This document shows, piece by piece, positions 48,065 through 64,000 of a DNA stretch of 64,000 bases (positions are counted from its first letter, which is position 1; the number at the start of each line of letters is the position of its first letter). The notes under the pieces were generated by a model. The model ran no database searches. It saw only the letters and a list, made by a program, of their open reading frames with translations, and was not told the DNA's origin. The translations under genes and the position numbers were made by a program. Origin of the DNA: a virus. Where the stretch lies: positions 91,888 to 155,887 of the IMG/VR virus record IMGVR_UViG_3300027848_000009. One strand, given 5' to 3'.

Positions 48065-48128
48065 GATTCCTTTCCACCACCGTTGCATGTTGGACTGTCC
48101 TGAGGGGGGCCTGTGTGGCCGTCTGTGG

Positions 48129-48949: not shown

Positions 48950-49165
48950 TCAAACTCCCTTGCTTTCCACCACCGTTAGAGGGTTGAGTGGGGGTTGGGT
49001 GCCTTCCGGGCTTTCTCCGTGTCCTTGGTACCAGCCGATGCTGTATGCGATTTGTTCCCAGATGTCTCCGCTGAATTTGCGGGGCTCCCGTTGGCGTCCT
49101 GCTTCGTGGGCTGCAGGATATTCTGTGATGATCCATTGACGGTTGGAGAAGTCGATTGTGTCCAT
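48950..49165 (-). CDS. hypothetical protein
   Basis: 71-aa ORF starting right after the upstream gene's stop. Confidence 0.55.
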   Translation of the reverse strand: MDTIDFSNRQWIITEYPAAHEAGRQREPRKFSGDIWEQIAYSIGWYQGHGESPEGTQPPLNPLTVVESKGV

Positions 49166-49166
49166 T

Positions 49167-49640: not shown

Positions 49641-49730
49641 TGCATTTTCCTTTCCACCACCGTTAATGGTTGAGGGTAACTTTTTGTTTTAGTTTGATTG
49701 GTTTTGTTATTTCGTACTACTGTAGACCCC

Positions 49731-50153
49731 ATGGATAATAGAAACAGATTTGTCATGTACATTAGGGCTCTCGTCCAGTACAGAAGTCGAGAGGGCCACC
49801 CGGACGTCCCGGCTCTTCACATCGAGATTCTTGATGGTCAAGAGGTCCGTCTTGGTGCGTGGGTTGGCTATGTCCGGCAGCGTCGCCGTGCTGGGAAGCT
49901 GAGCGAGGAGCGTGTCGAGTCGCTGTCGTATGTGATTGGCTGGAAGTGGGGGCCATTGAAGCCGGGGCCTCGGAGTGATGGGGAGAGGAACTCTGAGATT
50001 GTCTCTGATCGTTCCGCTGGTTCGAGCTTGCAGCAGATCGCCGATAAGCATGGTTTGTCGAGGCAGAGGATCCACCAGATCGTCACGTCGAGGGAGTCCC
50101 CGTTGTGGGGATACAGTAAAGAGCTTGTCGAGATTGGTGACAGTCATGTCTGA
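49731..50153 (+). CDS. helicase-associated (HA) domain plus HTH protein
   Basis: AL..Y..REGH.DVP...LGAWV...R.....G.L..ER...L....W.W, then SLQQIA..HGLSRQRIHQI. Confidence 0.8.
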   Translation: MDNRNRFVMYIRALVQYRSREGHPDVPALHIEILDGQEVRLGAWVGYVRQRRRAGKLSEERVESLSYVIGWKWGPLKPGPRSDGERNSEIVSDRSAGSSLQQIADKHGLSRQRIHQIVTSRESPLWGYSKELVEIGDSHV

Positions 50154-50355
50154 GCCTGTTCGCGTTTCTGCTGTTGTTGCCGGGTTCATGTTCACGGTTC
50201 TCTTGCACACTGCCATTTTCTTTTCCATCTCGAAGGCTCTCTCTAGGGCTGGGGTAGTCCCGGATCTTTCTTGGGGCCAGTCTGGTGTGATTGCTGTCGG
50301 GTACGTTGTGTCTAGGGTTTGGATGTCGTTTGTGACGACGAGAAGCGACGACTGA
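50146..50355 (+). CDS. small membrane protein
   Basis: Two hydrophobic segments; overlaps upstream stop. Confidence 0.55.
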   Translation: MSEPVRVSAVVAGFMFTVLLHTAIFFSISKALSRAGVVPDLSWGQSGVIAVGYVVSRVWMSFVTTRSDD

Positions 50356-50358
50356 TCA

Positions 50359-50381
50359 TGCGGGAGGTTGGTCCTCCCGCA
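50359..50381. terminator. hairpin between convergent genes
   Basis: TGCGGGAGG-ttggt-CCTCCCGCA perfect 9-bp stem. Confidence 0.65.
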
Positions 50382-50390
50382 CGATGAGTG

Positions 50391-51830
50391 TCACTGGCCG
50401 GATGCGTAGGAGCGGAGTCTGGGTGGGAGGGTGGTTACCGGTTTCTGTCCGGTCGCCATCTTCTTGAATAGTTCAACGGCGTCGGTCATGTGTTCGGCGC
50501 AGAGGATGCGGTTCTTGAGAACGTATTTCGCGCATTGGCGATCTAGGGTCTCGTGGAAGCCGTCGCCGATGCCGGAGACTCCACCGTCGGAGACCCATAC
50601 GATGGGTTCGTTTCGGCGGCGATTTTTGATGGCCCATTGGAGTGCTGGGAGATCCACTCCGTTACCGGCGGCGATGTTGTCTAGCTCTCTATACATTTTG
50701 CCGTTTTGTGCGAGGATCCAAGCGTTGTCGCCGCCTTGACGGTTCCACGAGTATGCGAGGACGGTTGCTCCGGGCGCATGTTTGACGATTGTGTGGATCT
50801 GGTCACGGGTGAACGACATGGAGACTGAGCAGTCGAGTACAACAATTCCGCCTCGTGCTCGAACTCGACGATCGAAGATCCGATATTCGGGGTCTGTCAG
50901 GTAGCGGTTGACTCGACGTGGGTTTCGACCCATGTTTGTTGCGACACGCTTCTTTCCCATTGTCCCTGTCGAGATTACGTCTAGTTGGACTTTCCCGAAC
51001 TTCAGTTCGCCCCATGCTGGGATGGAGTCAGATGAGGATACTGTGTCAATCGTTTTTGCTTTGAGCAGTTCACCGAATTCTTCGGGGGTGATTGCTTTTG
51101 TCGTTTCTCCGGGTTTCGTTTCTCCGGAGCCTGCGGAGTCTTCGGAGTCTTCGGAGTCCGGTTTCGGTGGCGCCTGTCCGGCGATCCGATCGATCCACTC
51201 GGCGAGTGCTTCGGTGTAGCGGAAACCTAATGGGGCGAGCCCTGTGGTTTCGTCGACGTTGGTCGAGGCTAGTACGCTTCTCGTTTCCCAGCCACGTTGC
51301 TGTTGTTCGATTTTTTTGAAGTGTTGGATGGCACGCTTCTGGATTGATGCGAGGTGGGTTCCCCAGTCGCGACGACAACGGCGGACGCCTGTCAAATATT
51401 TCTTTGACGATGCTGTGCCAGCTGTGGCGATGGCGAACATGACGGCGGAGTGCCAGTCGCCGAGCATTGCGATGCGTTCGCCGTCGGCGGTCTCACCGTC
51501 GTCAGACAGATCGTTCATCACGTCGAAACCGGCTCGGCCGACAAGGAAGTTCACTCGAAGTTCTTCGCATGCGATTAGCGCTTCTTCCGATGCGATTTCT
51601 CTAGCGACCCATTTTTTGAACTCGGCGCCGGGAGAGATTTTGGCGTGCATCATTTCGTGTGCTCGAATGACACGAGACATCGCTGATTCGTCGCCGGGGG
51701 CCACGATCTTGCGATTGATGATGTCGGTGTGGGGTAGGCCACGTTTGGGGGCGCAGACGTCGGTCTGCCAGCGGCCATGCTCGACGTCTTTGCGAGTCAG
51801 GACTTCCGGTTCTGTTCCGATGACAGTCAT
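50391..51830 (-). CDS. HEXXH metallopeptidase-like plus VWA domain protein (AAA partner)
   Basis: RAHEMMHA...EELRVN; VLDCSVSMS MIDAS-like; WVSDG. Confidence 0.75.
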   Translation of the reverse strand: MTVIGTEPEVLTRKDVEHGRWQTDVCAPKRGLPHTDIINRKIVAPGDESAMSRVIRAHEMMHAKISPGAEFKKWVAREIASEEALIACEELRVNFLVGRAGFDVMNDLSDDGETADGERIAMLGDWHSAVMFAIATAGTASSKKYLTGVRRCRRDWGTHLASIQKRAIQHFKKIEQQQRGWETRSVLASTNVDETTGLAPLGFRYTEALAEWIDRIAGQAPPKPDSEDSEDSAGSGETKPGETTKAITPEEFGELLKAKTIDTVSSSDSIPAWGELKFGKVQLDVISTGTMGKKRVATNMGRNPRRVNRYLTDPEYRIFDRRVRARGGIVVLDCSVSMSFTRDQIHTIVKHAPGATVLAYSWNRQGGDNAWILAQNGKMYRELDNIAAGNGVDLPALQWAIKNRRRNEPIVWVSDGGVSGIGDGFHETLDRQCAKYVLKNRILCAEHMTDAVELFKKMATGQKPVTTLPPRLRSYASGQ

Positions 51831-51831
51831 G

Positions 51832-52548
51832 TCAGATCGCCTCAATTCTCATGGCATCGAGGATGCCTACCGCACGATCCTTGAAAGTGATCTTTGCTGC
51901 GTCTTCGGCACCGAGCGACTTGCGTAGCTGGTCGAATGTTTTGAATGCTCGAAGCGAGACTCGACGTGGGCCAGCGTCTGCCATGTTGCGGGCAACCGTG
52001 CGCAGGTCTGCTGAGAGAGCGAGCAGTGCGTCAGGGTGCGGTTCGTTGATCCGTATCTGTACGGGGAACCTATCGACGAGTGCGACGGGAAGGTCTTCCA
52101 TGTCTTCAATGTTCGTTGTCATGACGGACGAGAAGCCCGGGCGAGGTCTATGGGTTCGGCTAGTTTCGGGGTGCGTCCATTCTGCGGACTCTGGTGAGTC
52201 GAGGATGGAGAGCAGGGTTGCGAATACGTCGCCTCCGGCTTTGTCGATTTCGTCGACGACGAGTCGTCCTCCGTTGAGTCCGTCGCCTTCCCATGCTTTG
52301 ACTCCGGATCCGAACATCCATTGGAAGCCGTTGGGTCCGGGGAGGAAGCCGCCTGTGACGTCGAAGTTGGTCATGTCTTCGGTGCAGACGAGACGGAATG
52401 CTCCGGCGGAGACGTTTCCGTGGTGGAGTCCTGCGTAGGTTTTGCCGGTTCCGGGAGGGCCGTAGAGCAGGATGCGGTCGATGCCGGAGTCGAGGCATTG
52501 CTGGAAGTGCTTCCAGCAGGTGGGGAGGTTTTCGGTGGCAGTAGTCAT
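51832..52548 (-). CDS. MoxR/CbbQ-type AAA+ ATPase
   Basis: GPPGTGKT, LVVDEID, MTTN, ALVDRF, VSLR. Confidence 0.88.
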   Translation of the reverse strand: MTTATENLPTCWKHFQQCLDSGIDRILLYGPPGTGKTYAGLHHGNVSAGAFRLVCTEDMTNFDVTGGFLPGPNGFQWMFGSGVKAWEGDGLNGGRLVVDEIDKAGGDVFATLLSILDSPESAEWTHPETSRTHRPRPGFSSVMTTNIEDMEDLPVALVDRFPVQIRINEPHPDALLALSADLRTVARNMADAGPRRVSLRAFKTFDQLRKSLGAEDAAKITFKDRAVGILDAMRIEAI

Positions 52549-52725
52549 GAGGGTTCTTTCAGTAGTAGTAACTAGGTGACATGTAGTAGTGAACACCTTA
52601 TTAGCAGGATTTCCAACCTGGTGACAGATTTTTTTTACGATTCCGTAAACCGGATCCTCCACAACCACAGTCAAGACCTTATTCGAGCAAACCACAACCC
52701 GTCTGTACAGATCTATCCAAAATAC

Positions 52726-52746
52726 TTATCCCCAGCCTGTGGACAA
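52726..52746. promoter_or_regulatory. inverted DnaA-box pair upstream of the AAA/VWA operon
   Basis: TTATCCCCA-gcc-TGTGGACAA. Confidence 0.6.
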
Positions 52747-52756
52747 CCCGGGACCC

Positions 52757-53251
52757 CTACACAACCCTATTCTGATCCTCAAACGCCTCATACAACCCAT
52801 TCTTCACCTTCTTGTACCGAGGAGCACCCTTCACATACTTCATCACCGAAGCATACGACAGCCCCGAGATCTCCACAAGATCATCAGGGGTGGCCTGCTC
52901 CAAAGGGTGATCGAACGCCCACTGATCCAGTTCCTTGTACTTGTCAGCAATCTTTGTTTTAGGTTCAAGCGGGACTCCGGTCTCCTCAGACGAGTCGCAG
53001 TACTTCCCAATCACATACTCACGAACTTCTGTCGGTATCCCATATTGCGAGAGAACACGATCAGCCGACCCGCTGCCATCCCACTTTTCGAGAACGTACA
53101 TTGCGTGCAGCGCCTTGTCGGCAAAATTTCTTCCTTCGTTCGGCATGGGGCCACCAAAGTTGACGTTTCCCCACTTTTCACGAAGAGCATCCCAGAGCGC
53201 CTGATGCTCTTCCTTGACTACCTCGATTGTAATGTTTTGCTTCATCCCCAT
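52757..53251 (-). CDS. hypothetical protein with C-terminal HTH-like segment
   Basis: AGGAG RBS; TPDDLVEISGLSYASVMKY. Confidence 0.65.
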   Translation of the reverse strand: MGMKQNITIEVVKEEHQALWDALREKWGNVNFGGPMPNEGRNFADKALHAMYVLEKWDGSGSADRVLSQYGIPTEVREYVIGKYCDSSEETGVPLEPKTKIADKYKELDQWAFDHPLEQATPDDLVEISGLSYASVMKYVKGAPRYKKVKNGLYEAFEDQNRVV

Positions 53252-53309
53252 CCAATTTTCTCCTTTTTTATGACATCCCTGAACGGGAGTCAAGTTTTGG
53301 TGCTTCACA

Positions 53310-53340
53310 AGTGTGGACTTTATTAAGCTGTTTGACAACC
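53310..53340 (-). promoter_or_regulatory. sigma70/SigA-type promoter of the cassette family
   Basis: GGTTGTCA-N17(contains TAATAA)-CACACT. Confidence 0.65.
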
Positions 53341-53417
53341 AGCTGTCGGTTTTTATCCCAGAAACCATAAAACCGGACTGAGCGTGATAAACTGTAACCA
53401 GCACGGAGGTGCAACAC

Positions 53418-53582
53418 ATGCGTAAAATCGACGGTCAACCAAACGAGTTCGGAACCTTTGTTCCAGCAGAGAAGCCGACAGCCCCGCCCGTGCCGGCAGT
53501 TCTCGAAGAGCCTCAAGCCGAAGAAGCCGAAGGCGACGAAGATTCAGGCTGGACCAAAAAGGGCAAGCGCAAGTCCAAGTGA
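53418..53582 (+). CDS. 54-aa protein, acidic middle and basic tail (not in ORF track)
   Basis: TAAACT -10, GGAGGT RBS, MRKIDGQPNEFG...KKGKRKSK. Confidence 0.6.
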   Translation: MRKIDGQPNEFGTFVPAEKPTAPPVPAVLEEPQAEEAEGDEDSGWTKKGKRKSK

Positions 53583-53748
53583 TTCCAGAAAAGGTTTCCT
53601 CCACCGTGATGCGTTGAAGACGTATCCGTGGAGCCCCCTTGCTACCGGGGGAGGCGAACCGGGCACCGTTTATCGGGGCTCTGCAAAACCCCCGGAACCC
53701 CATAGTAGGGGTCGGGGGTCTTCGCCTTTTCCGGGCCATGCAGCCGCC

Positions 53749-53937
53749 CTAGTACGCTAGTGCTTCCCAAATAGCGTCACCGATAACGCTCCAGCCTGCC
53801 TCAAGCATTTCTTGGGCCACATACTCTCCCCAAGCGTTTTGGAGATCCCGATTGGCACCATCACGTCTCGCCCACGTTGCACATCTGCGCTTATTCGGGT
53901 CAACAGCAACGTGGGGCAAAGATTTCCTCCACCCCAC
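53749..53937 (-). CDS. hypothetical protein
   Basis: 62-aa ORF in a minus-strand run. Confidence 0.45.
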   Translation of the reverse strand: MGWRKSLPHVAVDPNKRRCATWARRDGANRDLQNAWGEYVAQEMLEAGWSVIGDAIWEALAY

Positions 53938-53949
53938 GCTGTCAGGTTC

Positions 53950-54384
53950 TCACTTGACTTCTACACGGTCGATGATGGACCGAACCTCTTCCGAAATTGA
54001 GCGGTACATGCGTTCAGTCTCCGACGCGTCTTCAGCCCAGAAGGATTCGCTAGGGGCGATGGCCGGTGTTGCCGGATCGTTGGCGATCACGAGGTTTTTG
54101 CGTTCAACCCAGCGTGCTCCGTCGCCGCTGACTGGTGTGACAAGGAGGTCGAGGTGCCCGAATCTGGTTCGAGCACGTTGAATGGTTGTGCGGATGGTGA
54201 GGTCGCCGACCATAAAGTCAGCGCCAGCCCCGACGTATGCGTCGAGGTCAACCTTTCCGTCCGGCTTCCGAGCCACGAGGGTTCCTTTGGGTGATGGTGT
54301 GTCTACGATGTCCATGGTGTTTTGGTTATTGCTTCCTCCGGTTGGTACCGGGTAGTAGGTAGTGGGTAATGTATCTGTTGTCAT
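53950..54384 (-). CDS. hypothetical protein
   Basis: MTTDTLP... start; RFGHLDLLVTPVSGDG..WVE. Confidence 0.6.
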   Translation of the reverse strand: MTTDTLPTTYYPVPTGGSNNQNTMDIVDTPSPKGTLVARKPDGKVDLDAYVGAGADFMVGDLTIRTTIQRARTRFGHLDLLVTPVSGDGARWVERKNLVIANDPATPAIAPSESFWAEDASETERMYRSISEEVRSIIDRVEVK

Positions 54385-54476
54385 TTGACATCGCAACCTG
54401 CGAGCCAATATTTTTTCGACGACCCTTTCCTCCACCGTAATGGGTTGGAGGGGGTTGAGCGATTCTCGGGGCTCCC

Positions 54477-54665
54477 TTACGGGGTCAGCCACTCGGTCTT
54501 GTCGACGGTTCCGGTGAGGTGGTCTTCGAGTGCCTCGGACGTTCCGCAATCTGAGCAGATCTCGGTCTTGTTGTCGGTACGAGAAAACGCCCCGGGGTAA
54601 GCCCCGGGTGTCACGTTGTTGGGAATCCAGTCGCCGCAGCGTGGGCATACCGCCGGGATTTTCAT
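54477..54665 (-). CDS. zinc-ribbon protein
   Basis: CPRC...GA.SRTDNKTEICSDCG..EA. Confidence 0.7.
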   Translation of the reverse strand: MKIPAVCPRCGDWIPNNVTPGAYPGAFSRTDNKTEICSDCGTSEALEDHLTGTVDKTEWLTP

Positions 54666-55033
54666 GCTGTCTCTTTGGCGAGTGTCTTGCGGGCGGGGAG
54701 GTTCTTCCATGCGCCGTCCTTGTACTTGTCCACGTAGTCGGCGTTGTTGCGGGCGTAGGTGGCGAAACGGCCTGCTGATTCTTGGCCCATGAGTTCGAGG
54801 TAGAGGTCGGCAATTCCGGCGATTTCTTCGATGGTATAGAGGTATGAGGCCGAGGGGTCGGACTTGTACGTCAGGTCTACGACAATGCGGCGTCGGTCGG
54901 TGTGTCCTTCACGGATGGTGCGGTGGTCCTGCACGGAGAGTGCGTGGAGTGCGGTTGAGTCCGACACGTCGAAGACCATCTCAACGATGGGGTGCGCGTC
55001 GTCTATGGTTGTGTAGATGGCTGCTGGTTTCAT
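54662..55033 (-). CDS. KTSC-like domain protein
   Basis: LTY......YLY.........Y..LM..ESAGRF; leaderless promoter. Confidence 0.55.
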   Translation of the reverse strand: MKPAAIYTTIDDAHPIVEMVFDVSDSTALHALSVQDHRTIREGHTDRRRIVVDLTYKSDPSASYLYTIEEIAGIADLYLELMGQESAGRFATYARNNADYVDKYKDGAWKNLPARKTLAKETA

Positions 55034-55180
55034 GTAGGGAACGATATCGCTTATGACCTATAGTGACAACCTTGCTGTAAATAAATGTTGAGATTTATGT
55101 AAAAGTCGTGGTCAGTGGCCATGTTTGAGATTTTTTTGGTCTGAGGTTGTGAAAGGTTCCCATAAGCTATTGACTATTAG
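55034..55180. promoter_or_regulatory. divergent promoter region
   Basis: Minus strand: AGGTTGTCA-N17-TATCGT-N7-ATG(55033). Plus strand: AGGTTGTGA at 55144-55152. Both spacers contain CATAAGC; AT-rich centre. Confidence 0.65.
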
Positions 55181-55220
55181 GTGAGGGGAAGTACCCCAAC
55201 TACTGACGAAGGAGAATCTA

Positions 55221-55328
55221 ATGGGAGCCGAAGATTTCACTCACGCTACTATGGGGGCCACGATGGACGCCTTCATGGCCCAGTGGCGAGCAGAGCAACG
55301 CCTAGCCGATCGTGAGGCGGCAGCATGA
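55221..55328 (+). CDS. 35-aa protein
   Basis: AAGGAG RBS; ATGA coupling to next gene. Confidence 0.55.
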   Translation: MGAEDFTHATMGATMDAFMAQWRAEQRLADREAAA

Positions 55329-55639
55329 AAAAGCGTCACCGTGACGCACTGATCGCCGCACTCCAAGTCCCACCGGACGAAGGCGGCTACGTCAAAACGG
55401 TCGGTAAGCTCGTTCGAGAGGCTGACCGAGACAACGACACCGACACATTCTGCTGTCTCGGTGTCGCTTGTGACATCTTCGGGCTTTGGGAGAAGGACGG
55501 ATACGAACAGGGCGTAGGACTCACGTTTCCGCAAAGGCAGGCGCTAGGAATGTCACCCTCCGAGCACGCACGGCTCGCCAACATCAACGACAGCAGCGAC
55601 ACGTTCGGCCCGGTCATTAAAGCATTGCGGGGCATGTGA
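55325..55639 (+). CDS. hypothetical phage protein
   Basis: AL......Y....GKL......FCCLGVACD...LA.IND....F.. Confidence 0.7.
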   Translation: MKKRHRDALIAALQVPPDEGGYVKTVGKLVREADRDNDTDTFCCLGVACDIFGLWEKDGYEQGVGLTFPQRQALGMSPSEHARLANINDSSDTFGPVIKALRGM

Positions 55640-55834
55640 TGAGCGGCACGGACGCACGCCGCCAATGCTCCTGTGGTCGCTGCTAGACAACAACCGGCCG
55701 TCGAGCCGCCGCTGCCGTCGAGGCGTACAACGACAAGTGGGGTCCGGCTATCGGCGTCGAGGTAGCGCCGGGTCACTTCGTGTTCATAGGAATCGCGAGT
55801 AGCTGAGCTACTCAATCACACAAAGGAGAATGTA

Positions 55835-56356
55835 ATGGGAATGGACGTATACGGCAAGAACGCCCAGTCGAAGGCGGGCGAATACTTTCGCAATAACGTG
55901 TGGTCGTGGCACCCCTTGTGGGACTACTGCACAGAACGTCACGACGACGTGATCGAAGACCACGAGGGACTAGGGTCATCAAACGACGGTTTCTCGCTAG
56001 ACGAGGATCAGGCTCTGACGCTCGCTAACCGCCTGTTCGACGATATCGAGAACGGCGACACCGAAAAGTATCGGATCCGATACTACGAAGATCTGAGCGA
56101 TCTCCCCCGCACCGATTGCGAGCATTGCAACGTTACCGGTATTCGTGACGACCAAGTGGGAGTGGCGCACGGTATGCCGAATCGGGAATTGGACGAGGCC
56201 ACAGCAATCCTCGTCGGTCGAACGCACGGCTGGTGCAACGCCTGTCAGGGCGTCGGCACGAGAGAGCCGTGGCAGGCCAGCTACGATTTCTCGGTCGAGA
56301 ACGTGAACGACTTCGCCGGGTTCTGTATGAACTCCGGAGGATTCGAGATTTGGTAA
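55835..56356 (+). CDS. hypothetical protein with CxxCxxxG zinc finger
   Basis: AAGGAG RBS; MGMDVYG...YFRNNVWSWHPLW; CEHC/CNAC; SGGFEIW. Confidence 0.8.
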   Translation: MGMDVYGKNAQSKAGEYFRNNVWSWHPLWDYCTERHDDVIEDHEGLGSSNDGFSLDEDQALTLANRLFDDIENGDTEKYRIRYYEDLSDLPRTDCEHCNVTGIRDDQVGVAHGMPNRELDEATAILVGRTHGWCNACQGVGTREPWQASYDFSVENVNDFAGFCMNSGGFEIW

Positions 56357-56550
56357 TGGGCCTCTTCGGAGGAATCATCGTCTACGGCTTCGGGAAACGT
56401 CGCGGTCGCAAACAGGAAGTCCGATGTTCCCTGAAGCAAAACGTCGGGGCTGGCGACAGAGATTTCGGGCGACACGAATGTAACAACTATTATAGATTCT
56501 GTCGCGGCTACGGCTCTTGTGATGGAATGACCTGCGAGTACGGAGAATGA
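56356..56550 (+). CDS. small Cys-rich protein
   Basis: TAATG and ATGA coupling. Confidence 0.55.
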   Translation: MGLFGGIIVYGFGKRRGRKQEVRCSLKQNVGAGDRDFGRHECNNYYRFCRGYGSCDGMTCEYGE

Positions 56551-57032
56551 ACGAGGAAACGGGGCTCCCCTCTGATAACATTTGTCAAGTGGATACCAAT
56601 ACTGGACCCCCCGACACAACCAAGTTCTTCTCCACCCACGTGTGCGGCGACCGCATCTATTGCGAAGACGAGGAAGGCGACTGGTTTGACGAATGTCGCG
56701 GCGAATGCTTGTCCGCTCAACTGTTAGATTTCGAGGAAACGCTGCAAGGCTGGTTTGACCAAAGCAAGACGACGTGGTACGGAGTGTCGAACGTTGCCAT
56801 CGTCAACGATGACCAGACGTACGGCCGTGACTCGGGCTATCTCTCAATTCCGCGTGTGAAAGATCTGCTTGATTTTTTGGTTCACCTTGTGGGCGACTTC
56901 TCGATCCGATACGAGGTCCCGGAGTTGGGCGACAAGGAGTTCCATTTCTGGCAGGATAGTCGGAGCGATGAGGGGTGGACGGAGGATTTCAACTGGGTGC
57001 GTTGCAAGGTGTTCCACTCTGTTGCCCGGTGA
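56547..57032 (+). CDS. acidic hypothetical protein
   Basis: 161-aa ORF, coupled. Confidence 0.65.
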   Translation: MNEETGLPSDNICQVDTNTGPPDTTKFFSTHVCGDRIYCEDEEGDWFDECRGECLSAQLLDFEETLQGWFDQSKTTWYGVSNVAIVNDDQTYGRDSGYLSIPRVKDLLDFLVHLVGDFSIRYEVPELGDKEFHFWQDSRSDEGWTEDFNWVRCKVFHSVAR

Positions 57033-57036
57033 GAGT

Positions 57037-57122
57037 GAGGGACAACTTTCCTCACAATTATTTGCCTCGCACGTTGTGGTTGAGGCTAATAACCGGCAGA
57101 CTGTATCCATGACACAAGCAAC
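57037..57122 (+). promoter_or_regulatory. promoter cassette 1 (degenerate DnaA box)
   Basis: GAGGGACAA, TTGTGG(57074)-N17-CAGACT(57097)-N6-ATGACACAAGCAAC(57109). Confidence 0.75.
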
Positions 57123-57642
57123 GGCTACAATCACACCGACCGATACGTCAACACTTGTTGACGACGGCGACATTCTTGACATCACCGATTCTCGTAGGCT
57201 CGTCCTACACGTCAAGCATGACGAAGAGTCCTCGATCAACGACTATGAGGGGGATGGGCGAACACACCCGTGCGGCCGTTTGGGTCGCGCCAACCGCCCT
57301 GACGACTTCTCTGGTCGGGCACGCAAACTTCAGGTCTCTCGTTCGGAGTGGGTCTGGTGGGAGCCCTACGACGGACCAATTGGCTGGACTGACGCCAACG
57401 ATGTCTGGCAGGCCACCAAGTGGGACAACCTTCCCGAAGCTCAGCGCCAGATTCAGGTAGGGCGAGTGACTGACCTTATAGCCTTCGGCTTCCAACTGGT
57501 CGGCGTCGAACTACAGGAACGTGTTACAGACTCTCGTGGCGGCAGCCATTGGATCAGCGTAGACACAGAATGGGTCGGTGCAGTCGATGAGATCTACCCT
57601 GAGTTGGTCAGCGATCTGGCCGAGGAGGTCATGTCTTTGTGA
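57109..57642 (+). CDS. hypothetical protein (MTQAT start)
   Basis: Leaderless start from cassette 1. Confidence 0.75.
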   Translation: MTQATATITPTDTSTLVDDGDILDITDSRRLVLHVKHDEESSINDYEGDGRTHPCGRLGRANRPDDFSGRARKLQVSRSEWVWWEPYDGPIGWTDANDVWQATKWDNLPEAQRQIQVGRVTDLIAFGFQLVGVELQERVTDSRGGSHWISVDTEWVGAVDEIYPELVSDLAEEVMSL

Positions 57643-57821
57643 ACTACGCACGCCTGCACACTCAGCTACAACGTACCGCTGCCGTTCTGCTCCGCAGTCC
57701 CCCGTGCGATACGCATAGATACAACGAAGTGTCTGGTGCGGCCCGCATGTGTCTCGCAGCTAGCGAGGGTGATGCGATCGCAGGGTTCAACGCCACGAGA
57801 ATGATTCGTTCTCGATCGTGA
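57639..57821 (+). CDS. hypothetical protein
   Basis: GTGA coupling, GAGG upstream. Confidence 0.4.
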   Translation: MNYARLHTQLQRTAAVLLRSPPCDTHRYNEVSGAARMCLAASEGDAIAGFNATRMIRSRS

Positions 57822-57870
57822 GTGCCGCAATCCGGTTGTAGCCCCGCCCTGCGGGTGGCATCAGCGGCCC

Positions 57871-58097
57871 CTTTCCGCCACCGTGTTCCTTTGCGTCTAT
57901 TGCGTTTATTGCGTTTATTGCGTTTATTGCGTTTGCTGTGGTCTTGTTGGGTGGGTTTTGGGTGAACGTTGTTCGGGGCTGTTGGGCTGTGGATAACTTT
58001 GACTTTATCCCCACCCTGTGGATAACTTTCCCGATATTTCTTTGCCATCAGGTTGTGATTGTGTCTAATAACGGGCAGACTGTACCTATGACACAAG
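57871..58097 (+). promoter_or_regulatory. promoter cassette 2 with 3 DnaA boxes
   Basis: CTTTCCGCCACCGT; boxes at 57988, 58005, 58017; TTGTGA(58053)-N17-CAGACT-N6-ATG(58088). Confidence 0.88.
57891..57935 (+). repeat. 5 x 9-bp tandem repeat TTGCGTYTA
   Basis: ttgcgtcta ttgcgttta ttgcgttta ttgcgttta ttgcgtttg. Confidence 0.9.
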
Positions 58098-58405
58098 ACA
58101 CCGAAACAATCACGAACCCCGACGAGTACAACGGATGGGTCAATCGGGAGACGTGGGCGGCTGCGCTCCATCTCTCCAACGACGAGGGACTGTACCAGCA
58201 ATGCTTGGAGCTGGTCGCTGGCAAGCTGCGCTGGTCTGCCGGTGATGCCATCGAAGCGTTCGTGATGGAGCAGGTCGAGATGATCCTCTTCCCATACGAG
58301 CACGATGTGCCACCGACCGACCTGTGGCGCATGTTCATCTCAGATGTCGGCAGCATGTGGCGTGTCGATTGGCAAGCCGTAGCTGCCTCGTTCATGGAGG
58401 CGTGA
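58088..58405 (+). CDS. hypothetical phage protein
   Basis: YNGWVNRETW...L.L.NDEGLY...RVDW..VA. Confidence 0.8.
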   Translation: MTQDTETITNPDEYNGWVNRETWAAALHLSNDEGLYQQCLELVAGKLRWSAGDAIEAFVMEQVEMILFPYEHDVPPTDLWRMFISDVGSMWRVDWQAVAASFMEA

Positions 58406-58407
58406 CA

Positions 58408-58743
58408 ATGGAAGCTGACTGGACTAGCGAACGAATCGCAACGACCCTCACAATGGCAGCCGATATACTCGATAGGGACGGGTGGCGACGAGGGAGCTTC
58501 AACACTCACCTTCGTGCGCCACACTGTCTCATCGGTGCGATCCGCACCACAAACGAGGATGAATGGGTGAGGAACTCGGCCATTGAAGCTATCCGAGCCG
58601 AACTCGGAAACAACACCGAACACACTGCCGAGCAGGCGTTGGTCCTGTGGAATGACAGCGCCAGTGACGGGTGCCGAGATGGTAGACATGCTAAGCAGGT
58701 ATTGCGTCGCACGGCGCGTAAACTGAACGCCGAAGCTGGCTGA
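58408..58743 (+). CDS. DUF6197-like protein
   Basis: AADIL...GW..G......CLIGAI...WND; GGAGG RBS. Confidence 0.65.
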   Translation: MEADWTSERIATTLTMAADILDRDGWRRGSFNTHLRAPHCLIGAIRTTNEDEWVRNSAIEAIRAELGNNTEHTAEQALVLWNDSASDGCRDGRHAKQVLRRTARKLNAEAG

Positions 58744-58788
58744 CCGGGACTGACTACGGGGGCCGTCGGTTCCGCAACCGAACGGCCC

Positions 58789-59024
58789 CTTTCCCCCACC
58801 GTGTTCCTTTGCGTCTATTTCCTTCCCGCCTAGCCCCGCCGGACAGATTGCTGCAAGTTTTTTTGGGGGCTGGCGCCGCGGGTAGCCCTGTGGATAAGTC
58901 TAAAGTTGTCCACAGGTTGTGGATAACTATCTGTGGATAACTTTCCCGACAATTCTTTGCACGTAGGTTGTGATTGGCCCTAGTAACCGGCACACTGTAC
59001 CTATGACACAAGCAACCACCTACA
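58789..59024 (+). promoter_or_regulatory. promoter cassette 3 with 4 DnaA boxes
   Basis: Boxes at 58889, 58906, 58918, 58932; TTGTGA(58968)-N17-CACACT-N6-ATG(59003). Confidence 0.9.
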
Positions 59025-59236
59025 ACATTGCGGTCTGCACAGACTGCATTATGATGATCGCCAACGGCGAGGGGGGCAGCCATCTCGTTATGTCAATGAT
59101 GGCTGAGTGGCCCGACCACCTGCTCGGCTACGGCGGCGACCCTGACGATGAGGCCGATTTCTCTGGCACTCCCTGCGAGGGGTGCGGATCGCAACTGGGA
59201 GGGGCACGCCATGCGGCGCACGCTTTCGCACGGTGA
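59003..59236 (+). CDS. small zinc-binding protein (MTQAT start)
   Basis: CTDC...FS..PCEGCG..LGG.RH. Confidence 0.75.
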   Translation: MTQATTYNIAVCTDCIMMIANGEGGSHLVMSMMAEWPDHLLGYGGDPDDEADFSGTPCEGCGSQLGGARHAAHAFAR

Positions 59237-59240
59237 AGCT

Positions 59241-59435
59241 GTGACGGGCGGCGGCCTGTTCGTCGTGACCGGCACGATCACCGAGGTGAAGTCGGCGGCC
59301 GGGGCTCGCTTGGGGTTCGTGGTTGAACGACTGAACGGTGACTGGACTGTGATATCGCACGGCGCGTCTTGCGGGGGGACGTACACGACTCGTGATCGGG
59401 CTGTCGGTCAGCTTGCGACGTCTTGCGGTTATTGA
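59241..59435 (+). CDS. hypothetical protein
   Basis: GTG just after previous stop. Confidence 0.45.
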   Translation: MTGGGLFVVTGTITEVKSAAGARLGFVVERLNGDWTVISHGASCGGTYTTRDRAVGQLATSCGY

Positions 59436-59489
59436 GGCGGGGGGCCTAGCCCCGGGGTGGGGGTGTTGGTTTGTGTTTGGTTTGGTTGT

Positions 59490-59590
59490 GTGTCGGGGCT
59501 GTCGTTGGGCTACGGCCTGTGGATAAGTATTCCGATATTTCTTTGCCATCAGGTTGTGATTGTGTCTAATAACGGGCACACTGTACTTAC
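59490..59590 (+). promoter_or_regulatory. promoter cassette 4 with 1 DnaA box
   Basis: TGTGGATAA at 59518; TTGTGA(59554)-N17-CACACT; 59532-59578 is identical to 58031-58077. Confidence 0.88.
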
Positions 59591-59614
59591 AACTACCAAC
59601 CCAGGAGAAACCCA

Positions 59615-59809
59615 ATGAGCAATTTCGTTGTCGTCGCCCACCTACCGCTCGCCACGGCCGACACAGAGGCCAAGGACTTCCCTATCCTCCCCGCAGAGTG
59701 GTGCATCATGACGAGCAAGAAGTCCGCAGAGGCTAAGGCTCTCCGCTGGGCAACAGAGTATAGCCACGTAGCGGTCCACGAAATCGGTGAGCCGGTCGCT
59801 TTCGGATGA
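59615..59809 (+). CDS. hypothetical protein
   Basis: AGGAG RBS downstream of cassette 4. Confidence 0.7.
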   Translation: MSNFVVVAHLPLATADTEAKDFPILPAEWCIMTSKKSAEAKALRWATEYSHVAVHEIGEPVAFG

Positions 59810-59871
59810 TCCTGAGAACGGCCGGGCACGCTCGCTCGGCCGTTCGATTGGACCATTGAAAGGAAACCAAC

Positions 59872-60093
59872 ATGGAAAAAATGATGACCAAGGCTCACTA
59901 CGAAGACATCGACATGGACGTGCCCGCCGACACACACTGTGTCTGGTATCACTCCGCCGGTTGTCTTCCAGACTCGGAGTACCCAGAGTTCTCCGGCGAC
60001 GAGGATGAATGCGAGGCGTGGATCCAAACGAACCACGACGATTACGACACTTCGGTGCTGTACGTTCTGTCCGTTTCTCCGGTAGATTACTGA
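59872..60093 (+). CDS. very acidic small protein
   Basis: GAAAGGA RBS; GCLPDSE.P.F. Confidence 0.7.
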   Translation: MEKMMTKAHYEDIDMDVPADTHCVWYHSAGCLPDSEYPEFSGDEDECEAWIQTNHDDYDTSVLYVLSVSPVDY

Positions 60094-60234
60094 CATGACG
60101 TCAGAACGTTGGACTCAGACCATTGAGGCGCACGGGACAGCCCCGCCGGGCCAGCAGGAGTTCTCAGGCGCACCCTGCCCAGACGGCGGTCTCGTGAGCC
60201 TTTACTGCGGAGGGTCGTATGGGAAGACTGTCTC

Positions 60235-60432
60235 GTGAGTCTTTACTACTGCGAGTCGTGCGGACACACTATTCACAATACTAGAGCGGCGGGGACGGTG
60301 AGGCTGGCAGAGGTGTGGATCGCCGGGGCTGCCCTGACGTACTTTGCCATTGAGAACGAGAAGTACCGGTACCTCCACAAGACTTGTTATGAGATTGGGC
60401 GGCGTAAGGAGCATGAGGAGTCGCTTTTTTAG
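60235..60432 (+). CDS. small zinc-binding protein
   Basis: YCESCG...YLHKTC. Confidence 0.55.
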   Translation: MSLYYCESCGHTIHNTRAAGTVRLAEVWIAGAALTYFAIENEKYRYLHKTCYEIGRRKEHEESLF

Positions 60433-60473
60433 CCCCGCTGGTTGTCAACCGGTTGGCTGGCATTAGCCGGTTC

Positions 60474-60691
60474 CTTTCCTCCACCGTGTTGGATTGCGTC
60501 TATTTCTTTTCTGTTAGCTGTGCTGGGCGGGTTTTTGCAAGTTTTGTGTCGGGGCTCCGCGCCGGGGTCGGGGGCCGTAGCCTGTGGATAAGTCAGAGTT
60601 GTCCACAGGTTTGTCCCCACCCTGTGGACAAGTATTCTGACAATTCTTTGCACGCAGGTTGTGATTGTGCCTAGTAACGGGCACACTGTAC
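60474..60691 (+). promoter_or_regulatory. promoter cassette 5 with 4 DnaA boxes
   Basis: Boxes at 60583, 60599, 60611, 60623; TTGTGA(60659)-N17-CACACT(60682). Confidence 0.9.
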
Positions 60692-60718
60692 CCATACCCG
60701 CCAACAGAAAGAGGAATG

Positions 60719-60907
60719 ATGAAACTGTCACCTGACGGCGCAGGCTTCCTGCGTGGAAAGTGCGACGACTGCCGCTGCGTCCTGTCGATTTGGGCCCGCA
60801 GCGGACACGACATCGAGTGCCCCTGCGGCGCCCTGTACAATGGCTTCGGCCAACGTCTCGTGACCGCGTGGTCACGCTACGAGGAGGCGCTCGGTCTGGA
60901 CAACTGA
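60719..60907 (+). CDS. small zinc-ribbon protein
   Basis: CDDC...ECPCGALYNGFGQRL; AGAGG RBS. Confidence 0.7.
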   Translation: MKLSPDGAGFLRGKCDDCRCVLSIWARSGHDIECPCGALYNGFGQRLVTAWSRYEEALGLDN

Positions 60908-61046
60908 CGCACGGCGGAGTGGCCGCCCGGCGAGGGTGCGGCCCCTCTCCGGTGGCGCATGTGGGGCCCCGGGATTCGATGTCGAGTGCCGAGCGCGGCG
61001 CTGAGCCCCGCCGGGCGGCTAACGTTGGTTGGTGTTCTCCCCGTGC

Positions 61047-61209
61047 TGCAAGTTTTGTGTCGGGGCTGGCGACGGGGTGTCTGTGGATAAACCTGTGGAT
61101 AAGTCAGAGGTTATCCACAGGCAAATCTGTGGACAACTTTCCCGACAATTCGGAGGAAACGGCCCTAGTAACGGGCATACTGTACACATGACACAAGCAA
61201 CCACCTACA
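61047..61209 (+). promoter_or_regulatory. promoter cassette 6 with 4 DnaA boxes, -35 element missing
   Basis: Boxes at 61082, 61094, 61111, 61128; CATACT(61176)-N6-ATG(61188). Confidence 0.88.
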
Positions 61210-61382
61210 CCGCCACCTGCGTATGGTGCGACACCCTGATCGAACAGCCCAACCGTGATATCGGTTTGATGTACTGGGCGCACCCTGATCTGTATGACGT
61301 GGACTGTGACGGCACCATGTGCCCTGAAGACGAAGACCACCCTGACTACGAGGATCACGTAGCAGAACCGGACCTGCAATGA
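61188..61382 (+). CDS. small acidic Cys/His protein (MTQAT start)
   Basis: CVWC...WAH...C. Confidence 0.7.
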   Translation: MTQATTYTATCVWCDTLIEQPNRDIGLMYWAHPDLYDVDCDGTMCPEDEDHPDYEDHVAEPDLQ

Positions 61383-61675
61383 GCGGCCCGCACGGCGACG
61401 ACGGCAGCCGCGAGCAGCACCTGCACGACCTAGCAGCGGCCCACATGGAGCATGAGGCTCCAGAGTTCGCGACCGCCAACGGCGACTACACGCTGGACAT
61501 CCCGCCGATCGTAGGAACCGTGCCAGCCCATCCGGCGAGCTGCGAGTGCAGCCCGTGCGCCGACCGTGCCGACTGGAAGCGTAAAGAAAATGCGGGGCCC
61601 GTCCGCGACTACGGTTCGGTTGCCGACTGGCAGCGAGAGACAGCCCGCGACGACATCGCAAACGGGTTCGGCTGA
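61379..61675 (+). CDS. hypothetical protein
   Basis: ATGA coupling; HP.SCECSPC. Confidence 0.6.
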   Translation: MSGPHGDDGSREQHLHDLAAAHMEHEAPEFATANGDYTLDIPPIVGTVPAHPASCECSPCADRADWKRKENAGPVRDYGSVADWQRETARDDIANGFG

Positions 61676-61824
61676 TGAACGATGCGACCGATGATCTGGA
61701 CATGCAGATCACGCAAGAAAAGCGTGCCGTCTTCGAGACGTTCAAGCTCGCGCAAGCACGAGTGGCACGTTGGGAGCCTGCGCCATGCCCACCCCGCCCT
61801 TACGCACGGAGAAGAGTCCTATGA
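61675..61824 (+). CDS. 49-aa protein (not in ORF track)
   Basis: TGATG coupling; MNDATDDLDMQ... Confidence 0.45.
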   Translation: MNDATDDLDMQITQEKRAVFETFKLAQARVARWEPAPCPPRPYARRRVL

Positions 61825-61966
61825 TCGGTCGAACCCAACGAACATCAAGTTAACTTGACGCTGAAGACCGTGCGCGTCTTTAGCCCCGCATTTATAAGTT
61901 GTTTCGCCGCACACCGGGCACGGCCCCAGCATTGCTGTAAACTGTTAGTAACGGCAAGGAGCAGAG

Positions 61967-62110
61967 ATGGCCAAGCTAAACACGTTTACGGGACTCAGCG
62001 CCACGTTCGACAAACCGGCAATCAAACGCAAGGGTGTCCACTCGAAACGAGGGAAATCCAAGTCTCCCTCGTCGAAGAACTACAAGAAGGCGTACCGTGG
62101 CCAAGGGTGA
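61967..62110 (+). CDS. 47-aa basic protein ending YRGQG (not in ORF track)
   Basis: TAAACT -10, AAGGAG RBS; MAKLNTF...KRKGVHSK...KNYKKAYRGQG. Confidence 0.75.
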   Translation: MAKLNTFTGLSATFDKPAIKRKGVHSKRGKSKSPSSKNYKKAYRGQG

Positions 62111-62240
62111 AGCTGAGAGCATCTCTGAGGACACCCCTCCAGCCCCGCCTGCCGGCATCAAGCAGCCTGTGCCGGTGTTTGTCAACCGGGATCTGGGTCA
62201 TCGCCCAAGATGTGCTGGTTGCCGCAACTGAATGGCAGCC

Positions 62241-62327
62241 TGTGGACAACTTTCTTCACAATTATTTGCCCCGAAGGTTGTGATTGACCGTAGCAACCGG
62301 CAGACTGTACTCATGGCACAAGCAACC
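62241..62327 (+). promoter_or_regulatory. promoter cassette 7 with 1 DnaA box
   Basis: TGTGGACAA at 62241; TTGTGA(62278)-N17-CAGACT-N6-ATGGCACAAGCAAC(62313). Confidence 0.88.
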
Positions 62328-62498
62328 GACAACGAGCTTCGCCCGCATGAATGCGACGACAACTATGACCTTTACGAGTGGGGGCACATTGACTTCCCTA
62401 ACGAGTACGTCAAAGCACCGTGCGGCATGACGATCCACGTTGATGATGCTGCTACCCACAACGGCGCTGAGCCGTGCGGCTACAACCGGTGGGTATGA
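62313..62498 (+). CDS. small acidic protein (MAQAT start)
   Basis: Leaderless start from cassette 7. Confidence 0.7.
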   Translation: MAQATDNELRPHECDDNYDLYEWGHIDFPNEYVKAPCGMTIHVDDAATHNGAEPCGYNRWV

Positions 62499-62689
62499 TG
62501 AGGGCTGATCGCATCCCAATGAAGTCCGGTGACGAAGTGGACGAGTTCCGCAAACTGCCGTGGTGGTTCATCACCAGCGGGCACAGCCGGGACTCGCAGC
62601 ACCGCAAGGCCCGCAAGGCAACGAAAACTGCACACAATCAGCGGGCACGCCGACTGGCGAAGCTCACGAACCGAAAGGACACACGATGA
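62495..62689 (+). CDS. small basic protein
   Basis: ATGA coupling; IPMKSGDE...K..HN.R.RR..K. Confidence 0.65.
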   Translation: MMRADRIPMKSGDEVDEFRKLPWWFITSGHSRDSQHRKARKATKTAHNQRARRLAKLTNRKDTR

Positions 62690-63000
62690 CCACGACCACA
62701 CTCCGCAAGTGTTTCACCGGAAGCCCCGACTTGAAAGGTGACTGGATCGTCTCCATCTCTGACCACTCGGAATGGGGCGAATACAACATGGACGACTGGA
62801 CAGATATGGGACTCCTCCCATATTTCGGGCCGATCAGCAAATGTCCCGACATCCTCCTCGACCACGAATACAGCACAGGCTTCGGGTCGCCAGCACGTCC
62901 CTGCTACGCGGTCTGGACGACCAACTATGTCATCTCCTGCACCGAATACGACGGGTCCACCTCGTCCCACTGGGTGTCCCGCAATCCGCCGCATAGCTAA
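62686..63000 (+). CDS. hypothetical phage protein
   Basis: LD.EY..GFG......WT..YV....EYDG......RNP. Confidence 0.75.
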   Translation: MTTTTLRKCFTGSPDLKGDWIVSISDHSEWGEYNMDDWTDMGLLPYFGPISKCPDILLDHEYSTGFGSPARPCYAVWTTNYVISCTEYDGSTSSHWVSRNPPHS

Positions 63001-63013
63001 CATCGGCTGGTCC

Positions 63014-63190
63014 CTTTCCGCCACCGTAATACCTTTCGTCTATTTCTTTTCTTTTAGACCTACTAAACAGGTTTTTGCAAGTTTTTTTCGGGGCTCTGTT
63101 TCAAAAAGTTATCCACAGGTTGTGGATAAAGTCAGAGTTATCCACAGGGTTGGGGATAACTTTCCTCATAATTATTTTCCTCAGAGGTTG
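63014..63190 (+). promoter_or_regulatory. cassette 8 with 4 DnaA boxes, promoter core and cargo gene absent
   Basis: Boxes at 63109, 63121, 63138, 63151; similarity ends after AGGTTG at 63190. Confidence 0.82.
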
Positions 63191-63448
63191 CCTTCCCCGA
63201 CTGTTTGGCGGGCGACGGATAGCGGGGCTTCGATCCGGTCGGCTAGTGCGAACCGCTGTGAGTGCGTCATGTCTGTTGGGTCGCTCATGCTGCAACCTTT
63301 CGGCGGTAGGTGCTGAGGTAGCAGGTGCGCGAGCACGACCGCTGCGTGTTCGCTTCGCTCTTGACGGTGAACAGCTCGCCGCAGTGGCAGCGCCGCTCGA
63401 TCATCCGTTGGTGGCGTGCTCGCGCGCCGCAGGTGTAACAGTCGTCGT

Positions 63449-64000
63449 TCATGCGAGCATCGATTCGAGTGCTTTGAGCGTGACGGCTTCGTCTACTGCG
63501 GGGGCGACATGGTTGGTGAGCTGCTCGAACATGTCGATGGCCCGTTGCGCCAGGTTGAGTCGTTGGTCTGGTGTGCTGGCGTTGGAGGCGTAGTTGGCGG
63601 CGTGGGCGGCGGCGTAGGTTGGATTATCAGCCCATGCCTCAGCAGCCAAGATCGCTGCATCAACCATCAGGTCAGCGTTTAAATGCTGCACCTGCCGCGC
63701 TTGGTCGGCAGCAATCTTCACCCAAATCACCCGACGCTCAAGATCGGTAAGGTCAAGTTTCCCGGTACCGACAGTGCGATGACCTAGAGCCAAGACAATC
63801 AGCGAGCAGGGAGCACACAACAGATCGTCGTCACGATGGTTGCAAATTGTGTCGTTGACACGTTGCACAATGCGGGTCAGCAGCGGATCAGAGCAGTCAG
63901 GGAAGTCGGTGATCTTCGTGTCACCGTTTTCCCAGCTGATTACGTTCATCGCGCATCCTTTGCCGCTACCGGATTCGTGAGATCCGACAGCGAGGCGGAG
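63449..64000 (-). CDS. hypothetical actinophage-type protein (5' end beyond window)
   Basis: Frame stays open to the window edge: LRLAVGSHESGSGKGCAMNVISWENGD..ITDFPDCS. Confidence 0.7.
   Translation of the reverse strand, partial: LRLAVGSHESGSGKGCAMNVISWENGDTKITDFPDCSDPLLTRIVQRVNDTICNHRDDDLLCAPCSLIVLALGHRTVGTGKLDLTDLERRVIWVKIAADQARQVQHLNADLMVDAAILAAEAWADNPTYAAAHAANYASNASTPDQRLNLAQRAIDMFEQLTNHVAPAVDEAVTLKALESMLA

Follow-up and report, generated by a model that had tools for sequence, protein, structure and literature searches.

The last 64 kb of the linear virus record IMGVR_UViG_3300027848_000009 from IMG/VR (155,887 bp, G+C 54.9%, 98% complete according to CheckV) raise the question of why a phage genome should carry the recognition word of a bacterial regulator, DnaA, again and again in front of its own small genes. 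This stretch is the window analysed here, and positions refer to it unless they are given as genome positions. Between 57037 and 63190 it holds an array of repeated non-coding cassettes, in which DnaA boxes of the form TTRTCCACA stand upstream of predicted promoters. In nearly all bacteria, DnaA is the one regulator whose state reflects replication and growth, and it is known as a transcription factor, acting at dnaA and nrdAB of Escherichia coli and at sda of Bacillus subtilis. The array is real, non-random and clade-wide, and represents a variant of DnaA-regulated promoters and of repeated phage cassettes. As to the ligand of the boxes, we favour host DnaA, which would be used as an upstream transcription factor, and assign this reading a probability of roughly 50%.

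Distribution of the boxes and architecture of the array

The word TTRTCCACA occurs 20 times in the 155,887 bp of the genome, and 19 of these copies fall within the final 11.3 kb. The window contains 19 copies, against 1.12 ± 1.01 expected from 100 shuffles, of which the richest gave four. Eighteen of them lie within 57988-63146 and the remaining one at 52738, so that the remark of an earlier annotation made from the letters alone (hereafter the sequence-only reading), namely that the first 52 kb lack boxes, is correct. Three of the five TTRTCCCCA variants in the window also belong to the array (58005, 60611 and 63151), bringing it to 21 boxes over 57988-63159, the very counts of 18 perfect and three variant copies that had been made by eye. 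All 21 are non-coding, in a region of which 31.5% is non-coding. Two boxes besides the array stand at 52726-52746, and the genome total is given as 23. The genome-wide scan with an enrichment test that the sequence-only reading had proposed gives about one copy per window by chance; a similar box density elsewhere in the genome, which would have spoken against its claim, was not seen, as a single perfect box among the 20 lies outside the last 11.3 kb. The 9-mer equals the high-affinity DnaA box, which is TTATCCACA in E. coli and B. subtilis and TTGTCCACA in Mycobacterium tuberculosis and Streptomyces coelicolor (PMC4285127 Table 1).

The non-coding repeats make up eight paralogous units, lettered A to H. 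They emerged as repeat families, all eight could be aligned, and their start-to-start spacings are 979, 915, 586, 1105, 505, 1113 and 910 bp. This bears out the eight recurring modules described before, including their sub-elements CTTTCCNCCACCGT, GCGTCTATT, TGCAAGTTTT..CGGGGCT and GGTTGTGA-N17-CAsACT; the upstream parts are lacking, as had been said of some copies, in units A, D, F and G. The intact units end with GGTTGTGA, 17 nt and CA(G/C/T)ACT, which we predict to be a sigma-70-type (host sigma-A-type) promoter with the -35 hexamer TTGTGA, a 17-bp spacer and the -10 hexamer CAsACT. The succession of cassette, promoter and gene holds for most units, but not for unit H, which has neither an intact promoter nor cargo, nor fully for unit F, which has no -35 hexamer. 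Moreover, the count of eight covers only the paralogous units, and a ninth box-plus-promoter unit exists on the minus strand. The units and a sibling promoter without boxes are as follows.

57037-57108, plus strand: unit A; degenerate proximal box GAGGGACAA (57037-57045), -35 TTGTGG (57074-57079), -10 CAGACT (57097-57102), predicted +1 at the A of the ATG (57109)
57865-58087, plus strand: unit B; TTTCCGCCACCGT (57872-57884), about four tandem copies of the 9-nt TTGCGTTTA (about 57893-57935), boxes at 57988, 58005 (TTATCCCCA) and 58017, -35 at 58053-58058, -10 at 58076-58081, predicted +1 at the ATG (58088)
58758-59002, plus strand: unit C; terminator hairpin 58758-58790 (-25.3 kcal/mol, z = -2.8), TTTCCCCCACCGT (58790-58802), boxes at 58889, 58906, 58918 and 58932, -35 at 58968-58973, -10 at 58991-58996, predicted +1 at the ATG (59003)
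59436-59614, plus strand: unit D; one box (59518-59526), -35 at 59554-59559, -10 at 59577-59582, predicted +1 at 59589, leader with AGGAG, ATG at 59615
60433-60715, plus strand: unit E; TTTCCTCCACCGT (60475-60487), boxes at 60583, 60599, 60611 (TTGTCCCCA) and 60623, -35 at 60659-60664, -10 at 60682-60687, predicted +1 at 60694, leadered ATG at 60716
61040-61187, plus strand: unit F; boxes at 61082, 61094, 61111 and 61128, -10 CATACT (61176-61181), predicted +1 at the ATG (61188)
62236-62312, plus strand: unit G; one box (62241-62249, centre at -68), -35 at 62278-62283, -10 at 62301-62306, predicted +1 at the ATG (62313)
63008-63190, plus strand: unit H; TTTCCGCCACCGT (63015-63027), boxes at 63109, 63121, 63138 and 63151 (TTATCCCCA)
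52662-52746, minus strand: ninth, non-paralogous unit; TTGTCCACA-ggc-TGGGGATAA (centres at -80 and -68), -35 TTGTGG, 17 bp, -10 TTGACT, predicted +1 at 52662
55145-55180, plus strand: sibling promoter without boxes, AGGTTGTGA-N17-TTGACT, ahead of an operon at 55221-57032

The ninth unit lies upstream of an operon for an AAA_5 (MoxR-like) ATPase and a 484-aa protein and has the hexamers alone in common with the array. In unit H, an internal deletion took the spacer and the promoter decayed; the unit has no cargo gene and adjoins convergent minus-strand genes. A strong terminator hairpin was found in unit C only, with none evident before the other units.

Counted from the end of the -10 hexamer, the ATG begins at the seventh base in five units (A, B, C, F and G), and their mRNAs would accordingly be leaderless, as in leaderless actinobacterial genes, if transcription begins where predicted. 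Behind the same promoter, units D and E carry a leader of 21-26 nt with a Shine-Dalgarno sequence. The cassette promoters were not among the matches of a generic promoter and terminator scanner because their hexamers score below its thresholds.

Two minor observations concern the words of the cassettes. The tandem TTGCGTTTA 9-mers of unit B have apparently expanded from the cassette element GCGTCTATT. The intergenic joints of the array also contain AGCCCCGC (seven copies, plus strand, 57840-62141) and TCGGGGCT/TGGGGGCT (seven copies, plus strand). CGGGGCT is a near-complement of the AGCCCCGC core, and both words are present in relatives too (GCATTAGCCCCG, GCGGGGCT); they could be pairing elements or a further protein site.

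Box geometry and the readings as sink or origin

The proximal box is always oriented as TGTGGAYAA towards the promoter. In units B, C, D and E its centre lies at -67; the value is -68 for unit G and for the minus-strand promoter at 52662, and -56 for unit F, where a stretch shorter by 11 nt replaces the -35 hexamer. The GGA.AA core of this box is invariant in all eight aligned units. The sequence-only reading had suggested looking for the same modules with different cargo in related phages, and box arrays were found clade-wide, as were promoters of the cassette type in contig L116. The latter, with other cargo, has six such promoters, five of them with a predicted +1 at an ATG; boxes accompany two of the six, with centres at -57, -69 and -81. 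Relative to the predicted promoters, the boxes hence occupy fixed, helically phased positions, with proximal centres at -67/-68 in six promoters and at -56/-57 in unit F and L116.

Within the array, adjacent boxes are spaced start to start by 12 bp six times, which leaves a 3-bp gap, and by 17 bp five times. The distal boxes are mixed in orientation, and the units contain one to four boxes, those of units D and G being solitary. A fixed dyad operator would be a poor fit because of this variable number, the mixed distal orientations and the solitary boxes. Since the sibling promoter at 55145 has no boxes, they are an add-on rather than part of the core promoter. Together with fixed orientation and phasing, this box-less sibling marks the boxes as an optional upstream module that keeps to one helical face relative to RNA polymerase, an arrangement typical of transcription-factor sites.

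The boxes might nevertheless act mainly as a sink for DnaA that stalls host initiation, with their proximity to promoters being incidental. Loci that titrate DnaA are known, such as datA and the DnaA-box clusters of B. subtilis. The 23 high-affinity boxes per genome would be multiplied by the phage copy number, and unit H retains four boxes despite its decayed promoter. Furthermore, relatives possess promoter-less dense clusters of 14-20 boxes (L248, 1195-1470; a 129-kb contig joined from L010 and L313, joined coordinates 15540-15900). A sink, however, needs neither orientation nor helical phasing relative to the -35 and -10 hexamers, features that recur at the non-paralogous promoter and in L116. 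Two units are single-box, and the boxes are scattered in small promoter-linked groups of one to four rather than pooled. Judged from this arrangement, fixed orientation and helical phasing fit a transcription-factor site better than a passive sink. We consider titration improbable as the main function, whereas titration as a by-product is plausible.

Another reading sees in one or more of the clusters, most plausibly unit H, a DnaA-dependent replication origin of the phage. Unit H has four boxes and no promoter, the genes on its two sides converge, and its flanks exceed those of all other units in A+T content (72% and 65% over 40 nt); in addition, contig L058 has some 20 clustered boxes next to A+T-rich iterons in an origin-like manner. 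Neither runs of at least four DnaA-trios nor a strongly A+T-rich unwinding element were found in 57000-63200, however, where the richest 40-nt stretch reaches 72% A+T and only at unit H. There is no GC-skew signal, and seven of the eight clusters precede promoters in fixed geometry. An origin at this locus is thus very unlikely.

Candidate readers of the boxes and the evidence from relatives

With host DnaA as the favoured ligand, a mechanism can be proposed as follows. The accessory early genes would form an array of paralogous expression cassettes transcribed by the host sigma-A-type polymerase. DnaA would bind the proximal box at -67/-68, or one helical turn nearer (-56/-57) where the spacer is shorter, and could extend as a short oligomer onto further boxes, mostly 12 or 17 bp away. 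Bound DnaA might help or gate RNA polymerase, perhaps via the A/T-rich stretch from -60 to -40; as to the sign of regulation, we lean towards activation. The output of these genes would then track how much DnaA is present or its ATP state, and with it the growth and replication status of the host; titration of DnaA by the 23 boxes of each replicating genome would come as a by-product.

We retain host DnaA as the best reading for this phage on the ground that, among independent lineages, no other word comes near the exact DnaA consensus in frequency. The clade comprises at least 547 relatives. Box arrays occur in many diverged relatives with different core promoters (G008 with 36 boxes in 39 kb, G006 with 32 and G009 with 14, against 0-3 for the reversed control), and about 17 of 80 clade loci have at least three boxes. 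The 9-mer is also present in phage contigs for which no homology to this genome was detectable; L058, for example, has 30 boxes. The head-to-head arrangement TTRTCCACA-N3-TGTGGAYAA was found in at least 119 IMG/VR contigs, against one for the reversed control. A search of the phage in six frames at E <= 10 detected neither domain III nor domain IV of DnaA, and the same holds at E <= 1 for the relatives G011, G012, G013 and G008. Of the proposal of the sequence-only reading that host DnaA couples early genes to the growth state, the sequence supports the promoter cassettes with phased consensus boxes, and no DnaA-like domain is detectable in the phage; host DnaA stands as a candidate ligand.

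Several observations weigh against this reading. In actinophages, the usual readers of repeated operator words are phage proteins. The complete relative G011 (156,276 bp) is syntenic with the present genome for the greater part of its sequence, with proteins 45-82% identical. Its early block, and no other part of it, holds 98 copies of AGTAGATAA/TTATCTACT, and its word in the homologous cassette slot is AGTAGATAACTTTC where the present genome has TGTGGATAACTTTCC; it has only four true boxes, scattered, and no true-box array. Contigs L396, L400 and L402 repeat GTATCCACT 11 times. The G011 word and GTATCCACT depart from the DnaA box at two positions each, so that the sister lineages very probably have a reader that is not DnaA, and such a reader could exist here. 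In the present array, the box flanks beyond the 9-mer are semi-conserved as CC..TGTGGATAA..(C/G)T, which may, however, reflect paralogy. Finally, phage DSL-LC01 has similar promoter cassettes and no boxes at all.

These points feed the main competitor of host DnaA, according to which the boxes are operators of a phage-encoded regulator, similar to stoperators, whose word equals or evolved to the DnaA box, with DnaA irrelevant or a competitor. The private word of the syntenic G011, in the same cassette position and in 98 copies in the early block, the 11-fold repetition of GTATCCACT, and the strict orientation of the proximal box relative to transcription all suit such a regulator. DNA-binding candidates are present too, a double helix-turn-helix (HTH) protein (genome 1559-2122) and a 164-aa protein (52757-53248), whose C-terminus looks HTH-like by reading of the sequence and gave no Pfam match. 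Yet none of the candidates tracks the word, and the dominance of the exact DnaA consensus over independent lineages and non-homologous contigs is unexpected if specificities drift freely. We regard a phage regulator as possible, though less probable than host DnaA. The sequence-only reading had named a phage-encoded protein as the finding that would overturn it; this concern has gained weight through the G011 word in the homologous slot, while no phage reader that tracks the word was found.

Three candidate readers were rejected individually. The double-HTH protein is absent from the box-bearing phages G006 and G007. In the 164-aa protein, the putative recognition helix is the same in true-box, private-word and box-less phages. 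The helix of an HA-domain protein with an HTH (49698-50153) is nearly invariant, and this protein is found in box-less phages as well.

DSL-LC01 is the sole GenBank relative of the clade, a metagenome-assembled phage from Dishui Lake with Actinomycetia as predicted host (PMC10611076). The core of its cassettes, GATGTTATAAT, has nine exact copies listed before small early genes (L334, OQ999401.1 16715-57227), with flanking 9-mers occurring 14-17 times. The cassette is (A)GATTCTAAAGATGTTATAATAGAATC, an extended -10 within a GATTCT/AGAATC inverted repeat, and the leader ACGACGAAAGGACAA follows it; the 40 kb of this stretch contain no DnaA-box-like 9-mers. DSL-LC01 and other clade members place a private promoter cassette, without boxes, ahead of nearly all of their small early genes. 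On this scaffold of repeated joints with swappable cargo, the DnaA box is a control element added in particular lineages.

Because the clade offers true, re-spelled and absent boxes on one cassette scaffold, the question of their reader is directly testable. A tentative scenario, which we hold as doubtful, is that this clade of lake actinophages uses swappable cassettes read by DnaA, which a phage protein has privatised with a re-spelled word in sister lineages such as that of G011. If true, the clade would be a natural series of a host cell-cycle signal captured and then privatised, and the true-box phages would also compete with oriC for DnaA. If host DnaA is indeed the ligand, a phage family with early promoters wired to it would possess a simple and general means of sensing host physiology, and the role of DnaA in infection would extend beyond the few studied cases (lambda pR, P1 oriR and the proposal for the iss region of T5). 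In practical terms, the cassettes amount to a family of compact actinobacterial promoters, probably leaderless, to which a control module can be added upstream.

The searches behind these comparisons had different yields. An exact IMG/VR scan with the core promoter gave no match. The scan with the 16-mer CTGTGGAYAACTTTCC gave mostly single matches, which were taken as chance, and yielded L058, L116 and L010. Relatives by terminase, one of them 95% identical, had no arrays in the fragments examined. In L248, the pair of boxes at 52726 and 52738 was expected at the same position and is not conserved there. L058 (IMGVR_UViG_3300032242_002373, 47% G+C) shows its approximately 20 DnaA boxes at 6260-6800, followed by the A+T-rich iterons of GTTCAT type; it also contains a palindrome, CAGTTATCCACAcccTGTGGATAACTG, about 50 nt upstream of several small genes.

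Relation to known systems, cargo genes and a second motif

As in the DnaA-regulated promoters known so far, consensus 9-mers are found here less than about 110 bp from a sigma-70-type promoter, in small phased groups upstream of the -35 hexamer. The differences are that at least nine phage promoters are involved, that they precede accessory early genes and are mostly leaderless, as predicted from sequence alone. Short asymmetric words in many oriented copies next to gene starts are also familiar from other actinophages: the stoperators of Cluster A mycobacteriophages, bound by the L5 gp71 repressor, and the start-associated sequences of Cluster K are private words, and stoperators are spread genome-wide. 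Unlike these, the word here equals a universal host site and is confined to about 11 kb instead of dispersed (all but one of the 20 perfect boxes fall within the final 11.3 kb, and the array boxes are all non-coding), and no cognate phage protein was found: no DnaA-like protein was detected, and the three HTH candidates do not track the word, although the private word of G011 argues for some reader there.

To our knowledge, the promoter-early stem-loop (PeSL) cassettes of T4-type phages have not been described as carrying host DnaA boxes. PeSLs are mobile regulatory cassettes of an early promoter and a stem-loop (PMC2839356, PMC4122927). The array resembles them in its repeated terminator-promoter joints, which flank small, unrelated, swappable early genes in a hyperplastic region, and its repeats that enter the start of the open reading frames (ORFs) favour modular shuffling. 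Eight paralogous joints with unrelated cargo place it among PeSL-like cassettes, with a clear hairpin in unit C only and putative mobility; the phage group and promoter type differ.

Elsewhere, DnaA likewise serves as a transcription factor at gidAB-parAB of Pseudomonas aeruginosa (PMC13438810) and at lambda pR (PMC3985674). In T5-like phages there are eight DnaA boxes with pairs separated by 3 bp in the first-step-transfer region, where they belong to one large untranslated part of the terminal repeat, the iss region, and are proposed to arrest DNA injection (bioRxiv 10.1101/866236). Both systems have consensus or near-consensus boxes, seven to eight in T5 iss, including TTATCCCCA, and 3-bp pairs, of which there are six here. 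The present boxes differ in being split among intergenic promoter cassettes without a terminal repeat and so do not form an iss-like region. The corresponding reading of the array as the first DNA to enter the cell is not supported: the record has no end repeats, and the homologous block of G011 lies about 25-40 kb from the contig ends. The 123-bp 'terminal repeat' of G011 could be an assembly overlap.

The CtrA-binding sites reported in promoters of alphaproteobacterial phages (PMC9437464) share the idea of phage genes under a cell-cycle master regulator, though the regulator is a different one. We found no description of DnaA-box promoter cassettes in actinophages in the searchable literature. 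As regards the remark of the sequence-only reading that it knew of no such description, DnaA boxes have been published for T5-like phages (bioRxiv 10.1101/866236).

The cargo had been called small and unrelated, which is supported at the sequence level by mostly unrelated genes behind the promoter cassettes. Matches to Pfam and PHROGs were limited to DUF7249, DUF6197 and families of unknown function. The cargo and the other genes discussed below are the following.

57109-63000, plus strand: cargo; some 18 small genes (47-177 aa) whose GC3 signature is of the coding type
57109-57642, plus strand: g1
58088-58405, plus strand: g2 (DUF7249)
58408-58743, plus strand: g3 (DUF6197)
59003-59236, plus strand: g4 (Cys-rich)
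61967-62110, plus strand: g14
62686-63000, plus strand: g17, the last cargo gene
49698-50153, plus strand: HA-domain protein with an HTH (PF03457), 151 aa
48071, 48964, 49651, 53595 and 54426, plus strand: TTTCCNCCACCGT copies outside the array
57872, 58790, 60475 and 63015, plus strand: TTTCCNCCACCGT copies in the array

Five cargo ORFs begin with M(T/A)QAT or MTQDT, and these shared starts are explained by the repeat, which extends 14 nt into the ORFs. A pattern search of IMG/VR returned no relative of g1. One homologue of g1, 45% identical, is encoded in an actinophage-like contig with WhiB, L5-gp82 and GP88 genes, where a cluster of five to six boxes lies upstream of the WhiB-like gene. 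As a side observation, g14 encodes a very basic 47-aa protein (MAKLNTF...KKAYRGQG); its upstream region is its own and different, yet includes TAGTAACGGCA, a piece of the cassette spacer.

The 13-mer TTTCCNCCACCGT is a second repeated motif and forms the left edge of units B, C, E and H. All nine copies in the genome are on the plus strand, within 48071-63015 of the window and irrespective of the direction of neighbouring genes. It also occurs in L229, L217 and L256 (one contig), L116, L316 and L248, in a single orientation per contig. Among the 80 loci of relatives, 14 of 14 with the HA-HTH gene carry TTTCCNCCACCGT in the orientation of that gene, and 0 of 52 motif-less loci encode the protein (Fisher 2.7e-8, without correction for shared ancestry). 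The HA-HTH helix LSRQR(I/V)HQI is nearly invariant, and the motif is conserved in every contig that carries it. Owing to this co-occurrence and shared conservation, we propose the HA-HTH protein as the candidate reader of TTTCCNCCACCGT; the two would be a pair of site and reader, with the protein recognizing this motif and not the boxes.

The phage encodes a WhiB-family protein. Considering this protein and the actinophage genes in relatives, the host is an actinobacterium that probably lives in freshwater. The array matched no GenBank phage by nucleotide BLAST, in either the near or the distant mode, and Rfam gave no hit over 52000-64000. Immediately upstream of the WhiB gene, at 46600-46830, lies a stretch of about 230 nt that is nearly free of bases other than C and A on the plus strand; the 2-kb bin that contains it (genome 138001-140000) has a GC skew of -0.23. 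The left 42 kb of the record (genome 1-42000) has almost no tblastx match to G011. Its G+C content is 60-64%, against 48-55% in the structural region, and the box array has 55-60%; should the break of the contig be arbitrary, array and left arm may form one continuous region.

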